Below, piece after piece: positions 2,691 to 54,000 of a stretch of DNA of 64,000 nucleotides (position 1 is its first letter; every line of letters begins with the position of its first letter). Position numbers and translations under genes: made by a program. Source of the stretch: an uncultured Candidatus Saccharibacteria bacterium. Its GTDB lineage: Bacteria; Patescibacteriota; Doudnabacteria; UBA920. The notes under the pieces are model-generated. The model did not search any database, was not told the DNA's origin, and worked only from the letters and a program-made list of their open reading frames with translations. The stretch is taken from the NCBI GenBank assembly GCA_964483665.1, contig CAZACP010000001.1, positions 141,896-205,895 on the forward strand, in the 5' to 3' direction.

Positions 2691-2854
2691 TTTGGGCTTT
2701 CTCCCTTGAAAGTACTTAACGAAAATTTTTGGCTAAATACTTTCTTAATTTTCTACTCCCCCAATAATGGGGATTAGTAGTATGGTTTTATTTTCTTTCT
2801 GTTTTTCTACAAAATTTATTTTCGTTTCAGTAAAACTTTTACATTAATTTTATT

Positions 2855-3571
2855 TTAACTAGTTTTAAAAAATTTGTCAAGATTTTTTTCGTCTTGTAGG
2901 GAAAGCAAAAGCTTTTTTTTGTTTTCCAAATTTTGTATTTTTTCCAATTCAAAATGTAATCTTGATTTGGTAATAAGTTTTGTTTGCGAAAGTTTGTTTT
3001 TAATTGCTAAAAAGGACTGATTTTCAATTTTGAAATTTAGCTCAAGAGCAAAACGCAGAGCTCTGACTATTCGTAAAGGGTCCTCATTTATTTTTTCTTT
3101 CGCTTCACCTATAAATTTAATGCGTTTTTTCTTTAGGTCTTCCACGCCCTCATAAAAATCTAATATTTTGTTGCTTTTTAAGCTTAAATATAAGGAATTT
3201 ATAGTAAAATCTCTTCGTTCGCTGTCTTTTTTAACTTCTTTAATGTAAGTGATTTTAGGGTAGCGGGAACCAGTATACTTTTCTGTTCTAAACGTGGCTA
3301 CGGCAGCAATTAAATTTTCTTTTAAGGCTAAAATCACGCCTAAATTTTTATAGCCTAAATTAAAATCTATAAAATGATTTTTGAAAATTTCTGCCACTGC
3401 CTCAGGTTTTGCGCTCGTTGCAATGTCTATGTCTTCTACTTTTCTCTTTAATAAAATATCCCTCACTGTTCCCCCAACAAAATAAGTTTCGGGAAAGTTT
3501 TCCACAAGCAAAAAATATATTTCTTGTCCAAATTTTTCTAAACTATTTTTTGGTTGATATTTTATATTCAT
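2855..3571 (-). CDS. cca: tRNA nucleotidyltransferase (CCA-adding enzyme), minimal head-domain form
   Basis: GGTVRDILLKRKVEDIDIAT and ERRDFTINS motifs of class II CCA-adding / poly(A) polymerase family. 238 aa. Confidence 0.8.
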   Translation of the reverse strand: MNIKYQPKNSLEKFGQEIYFLLVENFPETYFVGGTVRDILLKRKVEDIDIATSAKPEAVAEIFKNHFIDFNLGYKNLGVILALKENLIAAVATFRTEKYTGSRYPKITYIKEVKKDSERRDFTINSLYLSLKSNKILDFYEGVEDLKKKRIKFIGEAKEKINEDPLRIVRALRFALELNFKIENQSFLAIKNKLSQTKLITKSRLHFELEKIQNLENKKKLLLSLQDEKNLDKFFKTS

Positions 3572-3595
3572 AAAAAAACCGATATAACTATCGGT
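3572..3595 (-). terminator. rho-independent terminator after atpC (accgata-taac-tatcggt + U7)
   Basis: 7-bp stem followed by a T-run on the minus strand, directly after the atpC stop. Confidence 0.6.
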
Positions 3596-3604
3596 TAGTT
3601 TAAA

Positions 3605-4057
3605 TTATTGGGTAAAAGTTTCTTGGCCAACAATAGAGCCTTTTGCGCGAGCTCGCTTTCTGGCAACTTTTAATCTGGAAGTGCTTCGTTCCAGAGCCGC
3701 GGCAACTTTTGCGTATTCGCCCGCGGTAACTTTCGTTTCCCGCAAAGCTTTTTCAGCCCTGTGTTTTGCTTCCTCGGCTCGCTTTTCGTCTATTTCAAAC
3801 GAGTGTTCGGCGGCATCGGCTAAAACTACAACACTGCCGGCTCTGTTCACCTGAACAAAACCGCCGGAAACATTTAAGTATAGCTCTTCGTCACCTGTTT
3901 TGGCCTTAAGTTCTCCCGGTACCAAAGTTGCTACAAGGGGTTCGTGGTTAGGTAAAATTGTTATTAGCCCCATTGTGGTAGGGCAAGTTAAACTGACCAA
4001 TTCTTTTTTTAGAACGGTTTTTTCCGGGGTTACTAGTTGAAAGTGTATAGAGTTCAT
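3605..4057 (-). CDS. atpC: F1 ATP synthase epsilon subunit
   Basis: Last gene of the atp operon. N-terminal beta-sandwich plus C-terminal helical region typical of epsilon. Confidence 0.85.
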   Translation of the reverse strand: MNSIHFQLVTPEKTVLKKELVSLTCPTTMGLITILPNHEPLVATLVPGELKAKTGDEELYLNVSGGFVQVNRAGSVVVLADAAEHSFEIDEKRAEEAKHRAEKALRETKVTAGEYAKVAAALERSTSRLKVARKRARAKGSIVGQETFTQ

Positions 4058-4060
4058 AGT

Positions 4061-4366
4061 TTATATAAAAGCGCCGTGCTCGAAGTTATTCCGATTATGC
4101 GCATCCTGATTGTCTGTACCCAATTTTGCCCAAATTCTACCTAAATCTGTTTCGTGATGAATGTTAAGCTTTTTAAATATACTAGCCGAATGAGCGTCAA
4201 CAGTTTTTTCAGAAATTCCTAGAATCTGAGCTGTTTCTAACCTTGTTTTTCCAGATGCCCGGAATTTTAGAACTTGTTTTTCTGCCGGCGTTAAACTTTT
4301 AAAACCCCCAGTCTCTTCTTTAGAAATAAAATTATGCGGATGTATTTCGAAATTAATTTTTTTCAT
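4061..4366 (-). CDS. LuxR/GerE-family HTH transcriptional regulator (101 aa) embedded between atpD and atpC
   Basis: LTPAEKQVLKF...ETAQILGISEKTVDAHSASIFKKL is a canonical GerE-type HTH. Confidence 0.8.
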   Translation of the reverse strand: MKKINFEIHPHNFISKEETGGFKSLTPAEKQVLKFRASGKTRLETAQILGISEKTVDAHSASIFKKLNIHHETDLGRIWAKLGTDNQDAHNRNNFEHGAFI

Positions 4367-4372
4367 GAAAGT

Positions 4373-5752
<1,380 letters not shown>

Positions 5753-7374: not shown

Positions 7375-8874
7375 TTATTTTACTGACTGTACAAAATTCT
7401 CAATCGCTTTCTTTAATTTATTTTCCGTATCCTCGCTAATTTCCTTACTGGACTTTATTGCATCTAGTACATCCTTACCCTGCACTTTCATATACTTATG
7501 AAAAGCGGTTTCGGTTTCCGCCATTTTTTCCACCGGTATTTCGTTAAAGTAGCCGTTGTTAACGGCATAGAGAATGGTGACTTGTTGTTCAAGCGAAAGC
7601 GGGCTGTATTGCGGCTGCTTTAGAATTTCCGTCATTCTTCGGCCTAAATCTAAGGTTTTCTTTGTAGATTCGTCTAAGTCGCTGCCAAACTGGGCAAAAG
7701 CTTCCAGCTCTCTAAACTGCGCAAGTTGAAGTTTTAATTTGCCTGCTACTTTTTTCATAGCCTTGGTCTGAGCGCTACTTCCTACGCGGGAAACGGAAAT
7801 ACCAACGTTTAAAGCCGGTCTTATACCTTTGTAAAACAAGTCGCTTTCAAGGAAAATTTGTCCGTCAGTAATAGAAATCACATTGGTCGGAATATACGCC
7901 GAAACATCGCCCGCTTGGGTTTCAATTATCGGGAGCGCTGTCAGTGATCCCCCGCCAAAATCTTTGTTTAGTTTAGCGGCGCGTTCCAGCAAGCGTGAGT
8001 GTAAATAAAATACGTCTCCCGGGTAAGCTTCGCGTCCCGGCGGTCTTCTGAGCAATAAAGAAATTTCGCGGTAAGCCACAGCTTGTTTAGAAAGGTCGTC
8101 GTAAACAACTAATACGTCTTTACCCTGATCCATAAAGTATTCGCCCATAGCAGTTGCCGCGTAAGGAGCAATGTACGAAAGAGCGGCCGGTTCAGAGGCG
8201 CCGGCAGAAACTACAATTGTGTAGTCCATGGCTTCATTTTCCTGAAGTGTTGCTACAATTTTAGCAATCTTGCTTTCTTTTTGGCCGACTGCGACATAAA
8301 TACAAATCATGTTCTGGCCCTTTTGATTTATAATTGTGTCTATTGCCACGGCTGTTTTACCGGTCTGCCTGTCACCAATTATAAGTTCGCGCTGACCTCG
8401 GCCAATAGGAATAAGCGCGTCTATGGCTTTTACGCCGGTTTGAACAGGTTCTCTAACTCCTTGACGGGTTATAACTCCCGGAGCGATTTTTTCCACCGGG
8501 TAAAAGTTAGCAGCTTTAATATCCCCCTTGCCGTCTTTGGGTTCGCCCAAGGCCGAAACTGTGCGGCCAATTAAGCTTTCGCCGACCGGGACAGACAAAA
8601 TTTTTCCGGTTGCTCTTACCGTGTCGCCCACGCTGATTTTTTGGTAATCGCCCAAAATAATGCTACCGATTAAATTTTCTTCCAGGTTTAAAGCCACGCC
8701 GGTTACGCCCTTGCCAAAATCAAGCATTTCCATACTGGCTACCTGAGTTAAGCCCGACACGCGCGCAACGCCGTCTGCTACTTCTAAAACAGTTCCGACT
8801 TTTTCAACTTTAACAGTGGCCTGGAAGTCTAGGATTTTAGTTTTAAGTTGTTGTACTATATTTTGATTAGCCAT
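7375..8874 (-). CDS. atpA: F1 ATP synthase alpha subunit
   Basis: Walker [10 protein letters not shown]; conserved alpha sequence. Confidence 0.97.
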
Positions 8875-49231: not shown

Positions 49232-52009
49232 CTATTTTAGGTGATATGGGGCATTTATCATGCCACACTTTTTGTACTTATAAACTTTACCAGTTTCTGG
49301 ATTTATCGCTCCGCATGGGCAAGGGTCGTTCCTGCCAACTTCCAATGAATCATTATTAGTGGACGATGATGTAACGCTGTCAGATGCAACAGAATTTAAT
49401 ACAATATTTCTTTGGGCTGGGGCTGTTCCGCCAGCTGGCGGATGTATTTGCGCCTGGATTTTAAATATCATATAGGCCATTTGCTTGTTTATTTCGGCCG
49501 TCAGCCTCTGAAACATTAAATGACCTTCTTTTTTGTATTCAACCAGCGGGTCGCGCTGGCCATAGCCTCTAAGCCTTACTGAGTCTCGTAAATGGTCCAT
49601 GGTATCCAAATGCTCCATCCAGAGCTCGTCTATGCTTGAAAGAGCGACAAACCGCAAAGCGCCGTCAAACACTTCCGGCCCCATTTCGGTTTCCTTTTTA
49701 GTAAACAATTCTTCAGCTACTTTATTTAACTCATCTGTAATGGCAAACTCTTCGTCCGCGGCATTTTTTGAGGCTTCTTTTATTCTTTCTTTTAGCGAAC
49801 TATCTACCGGCATTAACATGCCCGCGGATTTTATAACTTCTTCGTACGGATCTGAGTTATTTTCCCCGGCAGATTCATAAGCAAATTTTACTATATTTGC
49901 GATTTCGTCCTTTATTATATTTAAGTATTCATCCCTAAGTTGTTTTTCGTCTTCTTTAAGTTCGCTTTGTTTTACTAAACCGGGCAAATATTTTCGGCGA
50001 AGCTTGTAAATATGATTACGCTGATGGTTAAGCACATCGTCAAATTCCAGCACGTGTTTTCGGGTGTCAAAGTTAAGTCCCTCAATTTTTTTCTGCGCGG
50101 ATTCAATCGATTTACTAACCATCCCTGCTTCTATAGGCTGGTCGTCGGGAAGTCCCAAGGTTGTCATTATAGACTTCATTCGTTCGCCGCCAAACAGGCG
50201 CATTAGGTCGTCTTCCATTGAAACAAAAAATTGGCTGCTGCCTGGGTCGCCCTGACGCCCGCTACGACCCCTAAGCTGGTTGTCTATGCGGCGCGACTCG
50301 TGCCGTTCTGTGCCTAAAACATGCAATCCCCCGGCTTTTTTAACTTCTTCGGCTTCAGCAATAACATCCGGGCCGTTAGGTCCTGAGCCTGCCGAAGGGT
50401 TACCACCAAGCAATATGTCCACACCGCGTCCGGCAATGTTAGTAGCGAGTGTAATTTGGCCTAAGCGCCCGGCCTGAGCTATTATGCTGGCTTCACGTTC
50501 ATGATTTTTGGCGTTTAAAATTTCAAAAGGCAAACCCTCTTTTTTTAGGTAGTCTGCCAAAAGCTCGTTTTTGGCAATGCTAACCGTACCAATTAATACC
50601 GGTTGGCCTTTTCTGTGCCGCTCTTTAATTTCTTTGGCTATGGCCGTAAACTTCGCGTCTTCGGTTTTATAAACCATGTCCTGTAAGTCCTGCCTTTGGT
50701 TTGGCTTGTTAGTAGGAATTTGTTCAACAGTTAGCTTATAAATTTTGAAGAATTCTTCTTCTTCAGTTTTAGCCGTACCGGTCATACCGGACAGAAACCA
50801 ATAGAGCCTAAAAAGATTTTGGAAGGTAATGGTTGCCAAAGTTTTGCTTTCGGCCTGAATTTTTACGCCTTCCTTAGCTTCTATCGCTTGGTGCAGACCC
50901 TCCGAGTACCTTCTACCAAACATCATGCGGCCGGTAAATTCGTCCACAATAATAATTTCGCCGTCCTTAACTACATAATCGCGGTCTTTTTTAAACAAAG
51001 TCTTAGCCTTTAAAGCCTGCTCAATATGGTGTATGGTAGTAACGCCCTTAGAAGTGTCGTAAATATTTTTCACGCCCAGAATTTTTTCTATTTTGGTAAT
51101 ACCGGCGTCAGTTAAAGAAGTGGCTTTCTTTTTTTCGTCTATAACATAGTCTGTGGCTTCATCTAATTTTTCCACTATTTTGGCAAAATCAACATACTTA
51201 GATGTCGCGTCGGTATCGGGCGAACTTATAATTAAAGGAGTTCTGGCTTCGTCAATTAAAATTGAGTCGACTTCATCCACAATCGCAAAGAATAATTCTC
51301 TTTGCGAAAGTTGCATGGCGTGCTGCGCCATATTGTCGCGTAAATAGTCGAACCCAAACTCGTTGTTAGTACCATAAGTAATGTCGGCTGCGTAAGCTTC
51401 TTTGCGAGAAACCTTTCTCATATGCTTCACGTCTAAAACCAAGCCCTGTACCTGGCCTTCCACAGCTTTTATTTCTTCTTCATCGGGCTGGTAACTAGGG
51501 TCGTAAAGGAAAGACGCTTCGTGCTGAATAGAAGCAACACTAAGACCCAGGTAGTGGTAAATAGGTCCCATTAAAGAAGCCTGCCACCTGGCCAAATAGT
51601 CGTTAACAGTAACTAAATGAGCGCCTTTGCCGGCCAAAGCGTACAAGACCAACGGCAAACTTGCGGTTAGAGTCTTGCCTTCCCCGGTTTTCATTTCCGC
51701 AATGCGGTTGTCAGACAAAGCCATACCGCCAACTATTTGGACATCGTAATGTCTTTGGCCAGTAGTGCGTTTTGCCGCTTCCCTTACAAGCGCAAAAACC
51801 CTTGGCCTAATTTCGGTTAATTTCTCTTTGATTTCTTCCTTTGTCTTTAAATCTCCAATTTGCAATTTAAAATCTAAAATTTCTTTCTTTATTTGGTCTT
51901 CTGTCAGTTTAGACACCTCATCGTTAAAAGAATTTACCAAGTCCAAATCGCCCTGGTACTTTTCCAAAGCTGGCTTTTCCCCGCCAAATAATTTGCTAAA
52001 AAACGACAT
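49232..52009 (-). CDS. secA: preprotein translocase ATPase SecA
   Basis: DEAD-like motor motifs and a C-terminal zinc-binding CPCG...KKCG. Start set at MSFFSKLFGG rather than the ORF-track extension to 52147. Confidence 0.95.
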   Translation of the reverse strand: MSFFSKLFGGEKPALEKYQGDLDLVNSFNDEVSKLTEDQIKKEILDFKLQIGDLKTKEEIKEKLTEIRPRVFALVREAAKRTTGQRHYDVQIVGGMALSDNRIAEMKTGEGKTLTASLPLVLYALAGKGAHLVTVNDYLARWQASLMGPIYHYLGLSVASIQHEASFLYDPSYQPDEEEIKAVEGQVQGLVLDVKHMRKVSRKEAYAADITYGTNNEFGFDYLRDNMAQHAMQLSQRELFFAIVDEVDSILIDEARTPLIISSPDTDATSKYVDFAKIVEKLDEATDYVIDEKKKATSLTDAGITKIEKILGVKNIYDTSKGVTTIHHIEQALKAKTLFKKDRDYVVKDGEIIIVDEFTGRMMFGRRYSEGLHQAIEAKEGVKIQAESKTLATITFQNLFRLYWFLSGMTGTAKTEEEEFFKIYKLTVEQIPTNKPNQRQDLQDMVYKTEDAKFTAIAKEIKERHRKGQPVLIGTVSIAKNELLADYLKKEGLPFEILNAKNHEREASIIAQAGRLGQITLATNIAGRGVDILLGGNPSAGSGPNGPDVIAEAEEVKKAGGLHVLGTERHESRRIDNQLRGRSGRQGDPGSSQFFVSMEDDLMRLFGGERMKSIMTTLGLPDDQPIEAGMVSKSIESAQKKIEGLNFDTRKHVLEFDDVLNHQRNHIYKLRRKYLPGLVKQSELKEDEKQLRDEYLNIIKDEIANIVKFAYESAGENNSDPYEEVIKSAGMLMPVDSSLKERIKEASKNAADEEFAITDELNKVAEELFTKKETEMGPEVFDGALRFVALSSIDELWMEHLDTMDHLRDSVRLRGYGQRDPLVEYKKEGHLMFQRLTAEINKQMAYMIFKIQAQIHPPAGGTAPAQRNIVLNSVASDSVTSSSTNNDSLEVGRNDPCPCGAINPETGKVYKYKKCGMINAPYHLK

Positions 52010-52505
52010 AGTAGTTTTAAACAATATAACTCTCTCCAAGAATCCAAGAGATGTCCCGTATTTGCGGGACAGAGAGGTTGATATTAACGTCTTTAAATGC
52101 CTCGATATTATACTATATATACACCAATTTGAAAACCCTAAAAACAAAGAGAAAGGCCGCCGTCAAAACATCATGACGGCGCCGAGTCACCGGCCGATTT
52201 TAGCGAACATTTTTGCAGATCGCGCATAAAAAATACCCTAGTAACACGATTATCAAATGTAGCTGCTAAAAACGAGCAGTCGCCTACAAACACCACACGG
52301 AACTCCTGTCCTTCAAACTCAAAACAGAGTCCATTGTAAAGCATCATTTTTCCCCTCATTCTTCGCAGGCAAGTCCAGGCACTTGTCTTTCCTGCCTTGT
52401 GTATTTGCACTGGCAACTAGCCCCAAAATAACCAGTTGCCAATTCAAATTTCGAGTCCTTTTGCACTTGCGTACTAGCCTGCCCGCCGAAGCTTTAACGA
52501 AGGAG

Positions 52506-52526
52506 GGTACACTGAAACATAAAGAT
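52506..52526. repeat. copy A of the repeat family GTACRCTGAARCAWAMAG..AAGAT (upstream of secA)
   Basis: gtacactgaaacataaagatg. Also a gcgtactag half-palindrome at 52468-52476. Confidence 0.5.
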
Positions 52527-52571
52527 GGGCGGCAGGTTTCCTAGGCCTGCCGCAATTGTAAACGCAAGGAC

Positions 52572-52898
52572 TTAATCTGTGATCCAGCCACCTTGCGCGA
52601 CGTTTGAAAAATCGTAAACTTGTTGATAGTCAGGCTTATACTGAGCCAGCAATGGTTCTATTGTTGGGTAGAATTTTTCATCTACCATTGCACTAATAAT
52701 TTTACTGCTTCCGTCCGCCTCGGAGCGCAGATCAATGTGCGCGACACTTGTTCCATTGCGCTTAAGTGTGACAGAAACATCTGCCAACCCAAGCTCAGTT
52801 CCTTCAAACAATAAAGAGCCTAAAATCTCAGAGATTTTTTCAAACACTTTTCCCTCTTTCCTTGCAAGCGAGTACCCAAGCGCTCTTACCGCCTGCAT
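52572..52898 (-). CDS. hypothetical protein (109 aa)
   Basis: C-terminal 109 aa of the ORF-track entry look protein-like. The N-terminal extension is hydrophobic junk containing a repeat copy, so the start was moved to MQAVRALG. Confidence 0.45.
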   Translation of the reverse strand: MQAVRALGYSLARKEGKVFEKISEILGSLLFEGTELGLADVSVTLKRNGTSVAHIDLRSEADGSSKIISAMVDEKFYPTIEPLLAQYKPDYQQVYDFSNVAQGGWITD

Positions 52899-52950
52899 TG
52901 TAGTTTTGCGCTGGATTAAATACACATCAAGTAACTTAAGCACTAAGATG

Positions 52951-52974
52951 CTAGTACACTGAAGCAAAAAGATG
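52951..52974. repeat. copy B of the repeat family (ctagtacactgaagcaaaaagatg)
   Basis: Upstream of the 109-aa gene. Confidence 0.5.
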
Positions 52975-53165
52975 TGAACCAGGCCAAAACAAAACCACCT
53001 TCCGCAAAGGAAAGTGGTTAGAAAGAAGATTAATCCGCCGATTGACGAAAACACTAAACCACGAACTTTGCGAAAGAAGGCAAAGTCCACCAAGCTGAAA
53101 CTGTATATTTTATAACTGCTTTACTCATATTGCTAGTTTATAGCACAGCAAAACCTTTGTCAATA

Positions 53166-53201
53166 GCGTACTAGTACGCTGAAACATACAGTAAAAAAGA
53201 T
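53166..53201. promoter_or_regulatory. 14-bp perfect palindrome GCGTACTAGTACGC (trp-operator-like) + repeat copy C
   Basis: gcgtactagtacgc followed by tgaaacatacagtaaaaaagat. Lies in the divergent promoter region. Confidence 0.6.
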
Positions 53202-53251
53202 TTCACCTAATTATTCACAACCCGATTTACAAAAAAACTTTTATGTTCTAT

Positions 53252-53263
53252 TGTACTAGTACA
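53252..53263. promoter_or_regulatory. 12-bp perfect palindrome TGTACTAGTACA, 17 nt upstream of the TrpR/YerC-like start codon
   Basis: Perfect dyad containing the CTAG core. Overlaps the likely promoter/RBS of the regulator gene. Confidence 0.6.
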
Positions 53264-53279
53264 GTAACGTAAAAGGCTT

Positions 53280-53573
53280 ATGCAATACAAACACGAGTAT
53301 GGTATGGAGCTAGAAAAATTAATAGAAAAAATTGGGCAGGGTAAAGACAAAAAACTTATGCGTGAGTTTTTGTTTGACCTGCTCTCCCCCGCCGAGTACC
53401 GCGAACTTGCCGTCCGCTGGCAAATTGTTAAAATGCTTGAAAACAAAGTTCCGCACAGAGAAATCGCAAAAAAACTTAAGGTTAGCGTGGCAACCATAAA
53501 CCGGGGTAGTATGGAACTGGCCAATAAAAAAGGCGGCTTTAAGGCCGCGCTTGGGAAGTATTATAAATCTTAG
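53280..53573 (+). CDS. TrpR/YerC-family HTH DNA-binding protein (97 aa)
   Basis: LLSPAEYRELAVRWQIVKMLENKVPHREIAKKLKVSVATINRGS matches the TrpR-like (YerC/YecD) helix-turn-helix. Confidence 0.7.
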   Translation: MQYKHEYGMELEKLIEKIGQGKDKKLMREFLFDLLSPAEYRELAVRWQIVKMLENKVPHREIAKKLKVSVATINRGSMELANKKGGFKAALGKYYKS

Positions 53574-53670
53574 GTTTTGCTTGGTTTCTGGATCCCGGAT
53601 ATTTTTTGCCGATGTTAGCATAGTACAAAAAAATTCCGGGATGACAGTGTTTTGATGTTAAATTCTTAGA

Positions 53671-54000
53671 TTACACACCTTTAGCCATTCTTCTGGCTTT
53701 TTTTATCTTACTCAATTTTTTTTCTTTTGCTTTAGCCAACTGCTCGCGAATTTTTGGCATTACTAAATCCATAGCCGAATAAAAGTCCATACCATAACTT
53801 TCCGCATAGCAGCCGTTGGGCTTTATATCTACTTCCGCTCTGTTAAACATGCCGTTTTTATGGCGCTTTGAAACTTCTAGTTCGACGTGGATTTTGTGTT
53901 CAGGTTTTAAAAATTTTTCAACTGAGGAAAGCTTGTCTTCTATAAATGCCTTTATAGCCGGGGTTAAGGTGGTATTGGTTGCTTTGTAGCTAATATTCAT
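53671..54000 (-). CDS. hpf: ribosome hibernation promoting factor (HPF/RaiA, short form)
   Basis: MNISYKATNTTLTPAIKAFIEDKL... beta-alpha-beta-beta-beta-alpha fold family sequence. Confidence 0.85.
   Translation of the reverse strand: MNISYKATNTTLTPAIKAFIEDKLSSVEKFLKPEHKIHVELEVSKRHKNGMFNRAEVDIKPNGCYAESYGMDFYSAMDLVMPKIREQLAKAKEKKLSKIKKARRMAKGV

Follow-up and report, generated by a model that had tools for sequence, protein, structure and literature searches.

A predicted two-layer tryptophan switch of the Escherichia coli trp type at a trpR-like locus of a Patescibacteria genome

The trp operon of Escherichia coli combines a repressor and an attenuator at one promoter. Operators of the repressor TrpR (trpEDCBA, aroH and trpR) have GTACTAG as their basic sequence, CTAG-type boxes at a distance of 8 bp and TACA on the outside, and the trpR gene is autoregulated via an operator over its own promoter. 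Attenuators of the trpL type (E. coli trpL, the Rfam family Trp_leader and rnTrpL/peTrpL of Sinorhizobium) contain a short open reading frame (ORF) with tandem tryptophan codons and form mutually exclusive 1:2, 2:3 and 3:4 pairings that end in an intrinsic terminator. The usual picture of bacteria of the Candidate Phyla Radiation (CPR, or Patescibacteria) is one of minimal regulation and scarce amino-acid biosynthesis. Here we describe a trpR-like locus from this group, located in a 64-kb stretch of contig CAZACP010000001.1 from an uncultured Candidatus Saccharibacteria bacterium (64,000 nt, hereafter the window), where operators of a putative repressor and a trpL-type leader occur together, as in E. 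coli. We consider it very probable that, in the manner of the E. coli trp system, the locus senses tryptophan by a two-layer switch.

Two further systems bear comparison with this locus. The YerC/YecD proteins of Firmicutes (3frw, 3g1c and 3kor) are similar in length and fold to the 97-amino-acid (aa) product of the trpR-like gene; neither an operator nor a ligand is known for them, as far as we are aware. The nearest ecological parallel is trpRBA of the host-dependent Chlamydia trachomatis, where a reduced genome carries trpR beside a Trp-responsive leader and a salvage enzyme. The trpR gene of Chlamydia shares a transcript with trpBA, and the iron-dependent repressor YtgR takes part in attenuation (PMC7755916), whereas in the window the trpR-like gene is divergent from the leader and the predicted terminator and antiterminator are canonical. 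The parallel extends to the salvage enzyme, since the related locus L009 carries an operator, a SerK-like gene and TrpB2 in succession. TrpR-family repressors, CTAG-box operators and trpL-type attenuators are kinds of elements that are already known. What appears to be new is the CPR lineage, an operator with a single core and three boxes, a leader peptide on a nearly leaderless mRNA, the loss of the connection to trp genes in this clade, and orphan cassettes headed by pseudoknots. A literature search for TrpR or tryptophan attenuation together with CPR/Patescibacteria returned nothing relevant, most subscription journals lying outside its coverage.

The 97-aa protein belongs to the TrpR family, as judged from its Pfam match and its predicted fold. 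Pfam Trp_repressor (PF01371) recognizes it above threshold (6.8e-21, 74.6 bits with a cutoff of 27), which bears out the preliminary description of this stretch, where a TrpR-family gene had been placed at 53280..53573. An AlphaFold2 (AF2) model built on 23 relatives shows six helices with a predicted local distance difference test score (pLDDT) of 93.3. When this model was compared with the PDB by Foldseek, the best 40 matches were all TrpR or TrpR-like, with template modelling (TM) scores of 0.6-0.73; among them are the E. coli repressor-operator complexes 1TRO and 1TRR, and also 1zt9, at a TM score of ~0.7, which corresponds to the same fold as E. coli TrpR. Residues T44, R54, R69, T81, R84, G85 and S88 of the E. 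coli protein form the tryptophan pocket or contact DNA. In the HMMER alignment, the equivalents of R54, R69 and R84 are R46, R60 and R75, each of them invariant in the 23 relatives, while T44, T81 and G85 correspond to S36, T72 and G76, which are invariant or nearly so.

Two differences from E. coli TrpR are evident: the protein is shorter at its N-terminus, and the position of Ser88 is occupied by a glutamate (E79) that is invariant in the protein and its 23 relatives. The second difference weighs against a straightforward equivalence with TrpR, as does the score with the NCBIfam TrpR equivalog profile (TIGR01321), which at 48.2 bits stays under the cutoff of 67.25. Both observations would suit a regulator related to YerC/YecD that senses a signal other than tryptophan, the operators being real and the Trp-Trp leader acting independently. 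The best PDB sequence matches of the protein, the YerC-like 3frw and 3g1c, lie slightly ahead of E. coli TrpR and point in the same direction. However, the YerC/YecD profile (TIGR02531) yields 31.7 bits, below both its own cutoff of 42.2 and the TrpR score. Furthermore, the recognition helix reads T-I-N-R-G-S, closely resembling T-I-T-R-G-S of E. coli TrpR with Arg-Gly kept, whereas YerC-like proteins read S-R-V in place of R-G-S. We regard such a YerC-like regulator as unlikely, and the gene neighborhoods of relatives described below also speak against it. By profile, the protein is a member of the Pfam Trp_repressor family that does not carry the NCBIfam equivalog certification.

Upstream of the trpR-like gene are two perfect palindromes, GCGTACTAGTACGC at 53166-53179 and TGTACTAGTACA at 53252-53263, the latter 17 nt ahead of the ATG at 53280. 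Both had been noted before, and both are confirmed at these positions. Allowing one mismatch at most, their common core GTACTAGTAC occurs at just these two sites in the window. The heptamer CTAGTAC is found seven times, with 2.3 expected, and six of the seven copies lie within the trpR-like locus; the copy at 7464 is an isolated heptamer without a palindrome and was discarded as an operator candidate. We refer to the site closest to the gene as operator D and to the other as operator C (Table 1).

Operator D is placed on the predicted promoter of the trpR-like gene. This promoter consists of TTTACA at 53226, a 17-nt spacer and TATTGT ending at 53254, so that the operator core begins with the final two bases of the -10 element, an arrangement also seen in L010. 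Such an overlap with the -10 element and start region fits autoregulation. Operator C, in turn, contains a perfect 16-bp palindrome, AGCGTACTAGTACGCT, at 53165-53180, and its left end coincides with the -35 element (TTGACA, minus strand) of a predicted divergent promoter, the leader promoter. In relatives aligned at the same spacing, the -10 element of the latter reads TATAAT, TATCAT or TAGTAT. The proposal of autoregulatory operators is supported for the palindrome at 53252-53263, which covers the -10 element and start of the predicted trpR-like promoter; the one at 53166-53179 would serve the divergent promoter.

Conservation of these sites was examined in 12 further lineages (13 with the window; TrpR identities of 59-93%) and in 80 metagenomic loci. 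Since the related loci were picked via the TrpR protein, the operator statistics are unbiased as to the motif; they cover trpR-anchored loci, as opposed to whole genomes. The order secA, variable region, trpR-like gene, hpf, murB and murC is kept across lineages. All 13 lineages have GTACTAGTAC ahead of the trpR ATG, at a distance of 85-148 nt (281 nt in L009), and on the minus strand TTGAC(A) comes 4-5 nt after it in each of them. In 11 of the 13, there is a second core 22-55 nt ahead of the ATG. The core is likewise found upstream of trpR in all metagenomic loci with at least 57% identity for which upstream sequence is available. Relatives at 46-55% identity show a different arrangement, with a single core 50-120 nt downstream of trpR and directly after a -10 element, in the order TTGCAT, 17-nt spacer, TATCAT, GTACTAGTAC, ATAGATACAAGAG. 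Altogether, 93 distinct cores are found in 455,677 nt of trpR-anchored loci, where 0.53 would be expected from base composition, and the core neighbors trpR in more than 60 related metagenomic loci.

The core sequence is invariant, while the neighboring flank positions (-6/+6) are not kept complementary across lineages, a pattern of a protein-recognized site and not of an RNA hairpin. This observation bears on a different interpretation, in which the repeats would be RNA or DNA hairpins, restriction-type words (SpeI, RsaI, BfaI), or remnants of mobile elements or recombination that shuffle small-ORF cassettes. The palindromes could indeed fold as hairpins. Nevertheless, the core does not covary, it keeps a constant distance to the -35 or -10 hexamer in two different gene arrangements, and it is not abundant in the window; we consider this interpretation highly improbable. 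Nor do the counts, two cores in 64 kb and 93 versus 0.53 expected in the trpR-anchored loci, support a view of the repeat as a generic abundant word.

To define the operator beyond its core, we pooled 186 half-sites, each read outward from the CTAG center. The resulting profile for positions +1 to +14 is A-G-T-A-C-R-Y-T-R-W-T-A-C-A, which agrees at 11 of 14 positions with the half-site of the E. coli complex 1TRO, AGTTAACTAGTACA. The trinucleotide ACA is present at +12 to +14 in 89 of the 186 halves (3.3 expected). Positions +7 to +9 (Y-T-R) coincide with the place of the second CTAG box in E. coli (+7 to +10, 8 bp from the first), and the outer TACA is likewise aligned; L021 and L027 even have a perfect CTAG as this second box, at the same 8-bp distance. 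As read from these alignments, the full site is TGT-N6-GTACTAGTAC-N6-ACA, equivalent to two overlapping E. coli-type operators with a common strong central box. The strongest element is therefore a single central 10-bp palindrome accompanied by two weak boxes, whereas E. coli operators have two strong CTAG boxes.

By likeness to the 'tandem binding' complex 1TRR, each operator most likely accommodates two dimers in tandem, the central CTAG being common to both. The half-site oligonucleotide of 1TRR is presumably AGCGTACTAGTACGCT, the same as positions 53165-53180. The operator in 1TRO is TGTACTAGTTAACTAGTACA (PMC2504314), and the natural E. coli trp operator contains CGAACTAGTTAACTAGTACGCAAG and has GCGTACTAGT in common with the window, on its other strand (PMC11748629). 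The resemblance to trp operators suggested in the preliminary description is borne out by the E. coli geometry of the flanks, and the palindromes are invariant in sequence and position in the 13 closer lineages as well as in about 60 loci of greater distance. These observations support the prediction that the palindromes behave as operators of the TrpR-like protein.

The location of operator C, upstream of and over the -35 element with its core at about -50 to -41, is compatible with activation as well as with repression, and in this respect counts against a purely repressive switch. With the core center near -45, as is typical of activator sites, the TrpR-like protein might activate the divergent leader promoter, and the core is indeed upstream of the -35 element in all clade-1 lineages. 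Several features make activation very unlikely, however. The leader promoter is already well equipped, with TTGACA in its consensus form and good -10 elements, and the outer half-site of operator C overlaps the -35 element itself. In the distant clade, the corresponding leader promoter has the core over its -10 element and start, from where it could only repress. Finally, activation by a Trp-loaded repressor would oppose the logic of the attenuator.

This attenuator follows the divergent promoter and begins with a leader peptide ORF of 24 codons. In the window, the leader ATG (53128) is 6 nt after the end of the -10 element, and in relatives (L007-L017) the equivalent distance is 6-9 nt, so that the leader mRNA is probably leaderless or nearly so. 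Across both gene arrangements, 45 distinct leader peptides follow the operator in relatives, mostly with WW, some with WR and one with WWW; in clade 1, the W position alone is conserved. The 1:2 hairpin starts in the second tryptophan codon, and the stop codon of the leader comes after region 2. The loop of the terminator contains CTTTGC, the sequence of region 1, in almost every clade-1 lineage. Since CTTTGC is unnecessary for the terminator alone and required for an antiterminator pairing with region 2 (GCAAAG), its conservation supports the antiterminator.

To simulate the free, stalled and at-stop states of the leader, we used partition-function folding and masked the 5' part of the RNA to represent an assumed ribosome footprint. 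For the window, the terminator probability is 0.63 in the free RNA, 0.00 with the ribosome stalled on the second tryptophan codon, and 0.98 with the ribosome at the stop codon. The corresponding medians for 41 leaders are 0.94, 0.02 and 0.95, and 36 of the 41 switch by >0.3 in silico. Shuffling region 2 and the spacer raises the median for the stalled state to 0.92 from 0.019; the unshuffled value is the lower one in 40 of 41 leaders (Wilcoxon p = 2e-11), and the shuffled control of the window leader gives 0.97. In addition, the minimum free energy (MFE) of the window leader is better than that of all 200 shuffles (z = -3.18). In silico, the leader corresponds to a classical 1:2 / 2:3 / 3:4 ribosome-mediated attenuator. 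It differs from the trpL type in its nearly leaderless mRNA and in the orphan small ORFs that replace trp genes downstream. Rfam, including Trp_leader, gave no relevant match to the attenuator in 51900-53700, either at the gathering threshold or at E up to 10, and none at E up to 0.1 to this element or to the pseudoknot leader described below in seven related loci.

The genes behind the operator in relatives link the module to tryptophan. The same operator and leader stand ahead of trpE in L059. In L057, a trpD-trpC-trpF fusion (2840-5251) follows the operator without a leader. In L009 (601-2376, minus strand), the operator is followed by a 135-aa gene resembling SerK/SbnI and then by a TrpB2-type enzyme (708 bits). 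The placement of the operator ahead of trpE, trpD-trpC-trpF and TrpB2 ties the module to tryptophan, and because it is coupled to a Trp-codon leader except in L057, it also argues against a YerC-like regulator that responds to another signal. Given the biochemistry of TrpB2, the order of the SerK-like gene and TrpB2 in L009 may reflect O-phosphoserine-dependent salvage of indole. The attenuator of the window, unlike those of L059 and L009, is not upstream of genes for the synthesis or uptake of tryptophan.

Some further genes were observed next to the module in relatives. The 135-aa protein of L009, a metagenome-assembled genome labelled Doudnabacteria, is weakly similar to the N-terminal part of the serine kinase SerK/SbnI. 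A conserved protein of ~480 aa without a Pfam match lies directly behind the WW/WR attenuator in the distant lineages L055 (3371-4822) and L068 (3052-4482), on the plus strand in both, and is a candidate for a tryptophan-related function. In distant relatives, the operator is also found on promoters without a leader peptide (L086 1727-2452, L090 2460-3200, and L057), where the genes encode a weakly matching B3_4-domain protein, an Asp/Glu racemase-family protein, or the trpD-trpC-trpF fusion.

In the window, transcription reading through the attenuator would pass operator B, the 91-aa ORF, the split operator A, the 58-aa ORF and the terminator at 52181-52158 before reaching secA. The preliminary description had reported a repeat family of about 30 nt over three promoter regions. 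Recurrence itself stands: the 13-mer GTACRCTGAARCA has three exact matches (52507, 52954 and 53174), all on the plus strand and within 700 bp, while the other four matches in the window carry two mismatches each, the chance level. GTACRCTGAARCA corresponds to positions +2 to +14 of the half-site and so recurs wherever there is an operator. From its sequence, each member of the family combines an operator core with an outer half-site, and such a site stands at the start of every unit. The copies differ, as the leftmost (52468-52526) is split by a 29-nt insert and the middle one has a degenerate core. Neither of these two is a secA promoter element: the leftmost heads the 58-aa ORF, which has its own Shine-Dalgarno sequence (SD) and terminator, and secA is served by a TATAAT promoter of its own that lacks an operator. 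A regulon with secA or hpf-adjacent genes is likewise not upheld, as neither secA nor hpf has an operator. The divergent promoter with its Trp-Trp leader and attenuator, and the pseudoknot-led small-ORF cassettes headed by copies A and B, go beyond that description.

Operator B is situated between the attenuator and the first cassette and is followed on the minus strand by a weak promoter-like arrangement (GTGCTT, 17-nt spacer, TTTAAT); its ortholog in L007 is a perfect GTACTAGTAC. The insert in operator A is GC-rich and reads CCCUCCUUCG...GGCGGGCAGG. It is complementary to the 3' strand of the pseudoknot and the SD of the 58-aa ORF ~140 nt downstream, and the MFE fold pairs it with this SD region, at a z of only -1.98. 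An RNA stem linking both halves of the split operator was considered and dropped, the sequences giving no support. We also observed that the split junction, GTAC^CTAGTAC on the minus strand, is the same across lineages with differing, GC-rich inserts (L007 ~2197-2226; L008 ~1705-1742 and ~634).

A common junction with differing inserts, together with cargo ORFs that vary between lineages while the flanking modules are conserved, would suit the idea that the repeats are recombination remnants. Against this idea, no transposase or integrase is found nearby. No convincing target-site duplication is seen at the split of operator A. The repeats may have a secondary role in recombination besides protein binding.

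The two cassettes encode orphan proteins. The likely start of the first ORF is the GTG at 52847, which gives 91 aa; public calls of 108/123 aa for this ORF (also in L001-L006) start inside the pseudoknot leader RNA (52847-52898). Word-indexed and exhaustive HMMER searches of 5.8e9 and 1.8e9 proteins revealed only 2-3 relatives of the 91-aa ORF, and the 58-aa ORF matched only itself in 5.8e9 proteins. Neither ORF has a match in Pfam, NCBIfam, PHROG or PADLOC, and AF2 gave no usable fold for the 91-aa ORF (pLDDT 58). Other lineages carry unrelated small ORFs at the cassette position, with the flanking modules kept.

Directly upstream of the SD of each ORF is a common RNA motif composed of CCAGCRC, an A-rich linker and a hairpin with the loop GYGCUGG. 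The complementarity of this loop to CCAGCRC implies an H-type pseudoknot. Copy 1 reads CCAGCGC ... GCGCTTGG, with the stem GCAGGCG/CGCTTGC and then the SD. The covariance model R1 detects exactly two copies in the window, both at the trpR-like locus, and 23 copies in relatives (L007-L044), six of them outside the model-building set. In a model-guided alignment of 23 instances, 85.6% of the cells pair, compared with 28-43% for slid partners; 9 of 16 pairs are changed on both sides, which is reached by 1 of 500 shuffles, and the pseudoknot stem covaries A-U with G-C, 11 to 5. Covariation backs all three helices. Rfam gave no relevant match to the pseudoknot leader in 51900-53700 at E up to 10, and the leader is a candidate for a new cis-regulatory RNA motif.

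Two other readings of this region were rejected: a 36-aa ORF across pseudoknot leader 2 (52466-52356), which from its sequence is not conserved in L007, and a structured RNA gene (RNase P, tmRNA or 6S) in 52150-52570, for which neither Rfam nor ARAGORN gave a match. Among the cargo proteins, several have a C-terminal F-[KR]-R-x-F-like motif in common. A small-protein family with the pattern ..FPFLKGKTFQ.Y....V.QCAVR.PGE.PGQ.FQ..L.DL..CTR..F recurs after an operator or leader in L009 (150-518, minus strand) and L018 (4608-4823, minus strand).

Table 1. Features of the trpR-like locus in the window; promoters, operators and RNA elements are predictions
Feature	Position	Strand	Basis
trpR-like gene, 97 aa	53280..53573	+	Pfam Trp_repressor match, predicted fold
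Operator D, TGTACTAGTACA, core 53253-53262	53252..53263	unstranded	over -10/start of predicted trpR-like promoter
Predicted sigma-70-type promoter of the trpR-like gene	53226..53254	+	consensus scan, 9/12 matches
Operator C, extended, TGTCAATAGC-GTACTAGTAC-GCTGAAACA	53158..53186	unstranded	palindrome, conservation, half-site statistics
Leader promoter: TTGACA 53163-53158, 17-nt spacer, TAAACT	53135..53163	-	consensus scan, 10/12 matches
Leader peptide ORF, MSKAVIKYTVSAWWTLPSFAKFVV, 24 codons, tandem Trp codons 53092-53087	53054..53128	-	ORF reading, conservation
Attenuator regions 1 (GGACTTTGC) and 2 (GCAAAGTTC)	53063..53088	-	hairpin, conserved in relatives
Attenuator regions 3:4, intrinsic terminator, AACCACTTTCC-TTTGC-GGAAGGTGGTT + TTTGTTTTG	52985..53019	-	terminator scan and folding
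Operator B: degenerate core ATGCTAGTAC + outer half-site ACTGAAGCA	52948..52966	unstranded	motif matches
Pseudoknot leader RNA, copy 1	52842..52920	-	model R1, 66.1 bits, E 5.4e-14
Orphan ORF, 91 aa, GTG start	52572..52847	-	alignment with other cassettes, RNA model
Operator A, split: GTACTAG 52471-52477, insert 52478-52506, GTACACTGAAACA 52507-52519	52471..52519	unstranded	motif matches
Pseudoknot leader RNA, copy 2	52343..52419	-	model R1, 71.8 bits, E 2.6e-15
Orphan ORF, 58 aa, SD GAGGGG, then intrinsic terminator 52181-52158	52171..52347	-	ORF and terminator scan

The arrangement of these elements suggests how a two-layer switch of the E. coli trp type could operate. The Trp-loaded TrpR-like protein would bind operators built on GTACTAGTAC with weaker outer half-sites. 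In the presence of tryptophan, occupation of operator D, over the -10 element and start of its own promoter, would lead to autorepression, and operator C would be occupied at the same time, its promoter-proximal outer box being the -35 element of the leader promoter. The divergent promoter would give a nearly leaderless transcript encoding the 24-aa Trp-Trp peptide. With plentiful tryptophan, transcripts started despite repression would terminate because the ribosome runs to the stop codon and covers region 2, which lets the terminator form. Without tryptophan, both promoters would be open, and with charged tRNA-Trp scarce the ribosome would stall at W13-W14, covering region 1. Region 2 (GCAAAG) would then pair with CTTTGC of the terminator, and RNA polymerase would read through, expressing the 91-aa and 58-aa ORFs, each behind a pseudoknot RNA. 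The pseudoknot leaders probably add a translational layer.

Beside the glutamate at the Ser88 position, the equivalog score and the position of operator C, several points weigh against this switch. The genes that it would regulate in the window are orphans without a link to tryptophan, and no trp gene was found in the 64 kb by tblastn with trpB2, trpE, trpD and SerK-like queries. Promoters and transcription starts are consensus predictions, and the RNA-switch test is thermodynamic folding with an assumed ribosome footprint. Operators A and B, one split and the other degenerate, are putative parts of the switch. While the sequence features with their conservation, the predicted protein fold and the in silico behavior of the RNA are observed directly, DNA binding, the response to tryptophan, regulation, the tandem-dimer mode and any activity of the small proteins are inferred.

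A more far-reaching reading, which we offer tentatively and regard as rather doubtful, is that the TrpR and attenuator switch of this clade has been uncoupled from tryptophan synthesis and drives hypervariable orphan cassettes as a tryptophan-starvation program, possibly as a signal of host dependence. The pseudoknot RNA would then be a sensor (a riboswitch or a tRNA- or protein-binding element) that gates translation, and the operator palindromes and leader modules would serve as joints for cassette exchange.

Elsewhere in the window, a group I intron (Rfam, 64.6 bits) is found at 1651-1978 on the minus strand, followed by a tRNA-like 3' half at 1590-1650 with the T-arm GGTTCCCGGTTCGAGTCCGGG, the acceptor and CCA. 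It is located just upstream of tRNA-Met and tRNA-Asp. ARAGORN made no call of an intron-containing tRNA at 1590-1978, and a 5' half was not found.

Taken as a two-layer switch of the E. coli trp type, the trpR-like locus would represent a complete, textbook-style arrangement for tryptophan control, kept across many uncultured lineages. Because of this conservation, the prediction is directly testable with the 97-aa protein and 30-bp DNA fragments. Such a switch would also offer a defined signal, tryptophan or charged tRNA-Trp, for orphan small genes that are otherwise uninterpretable.

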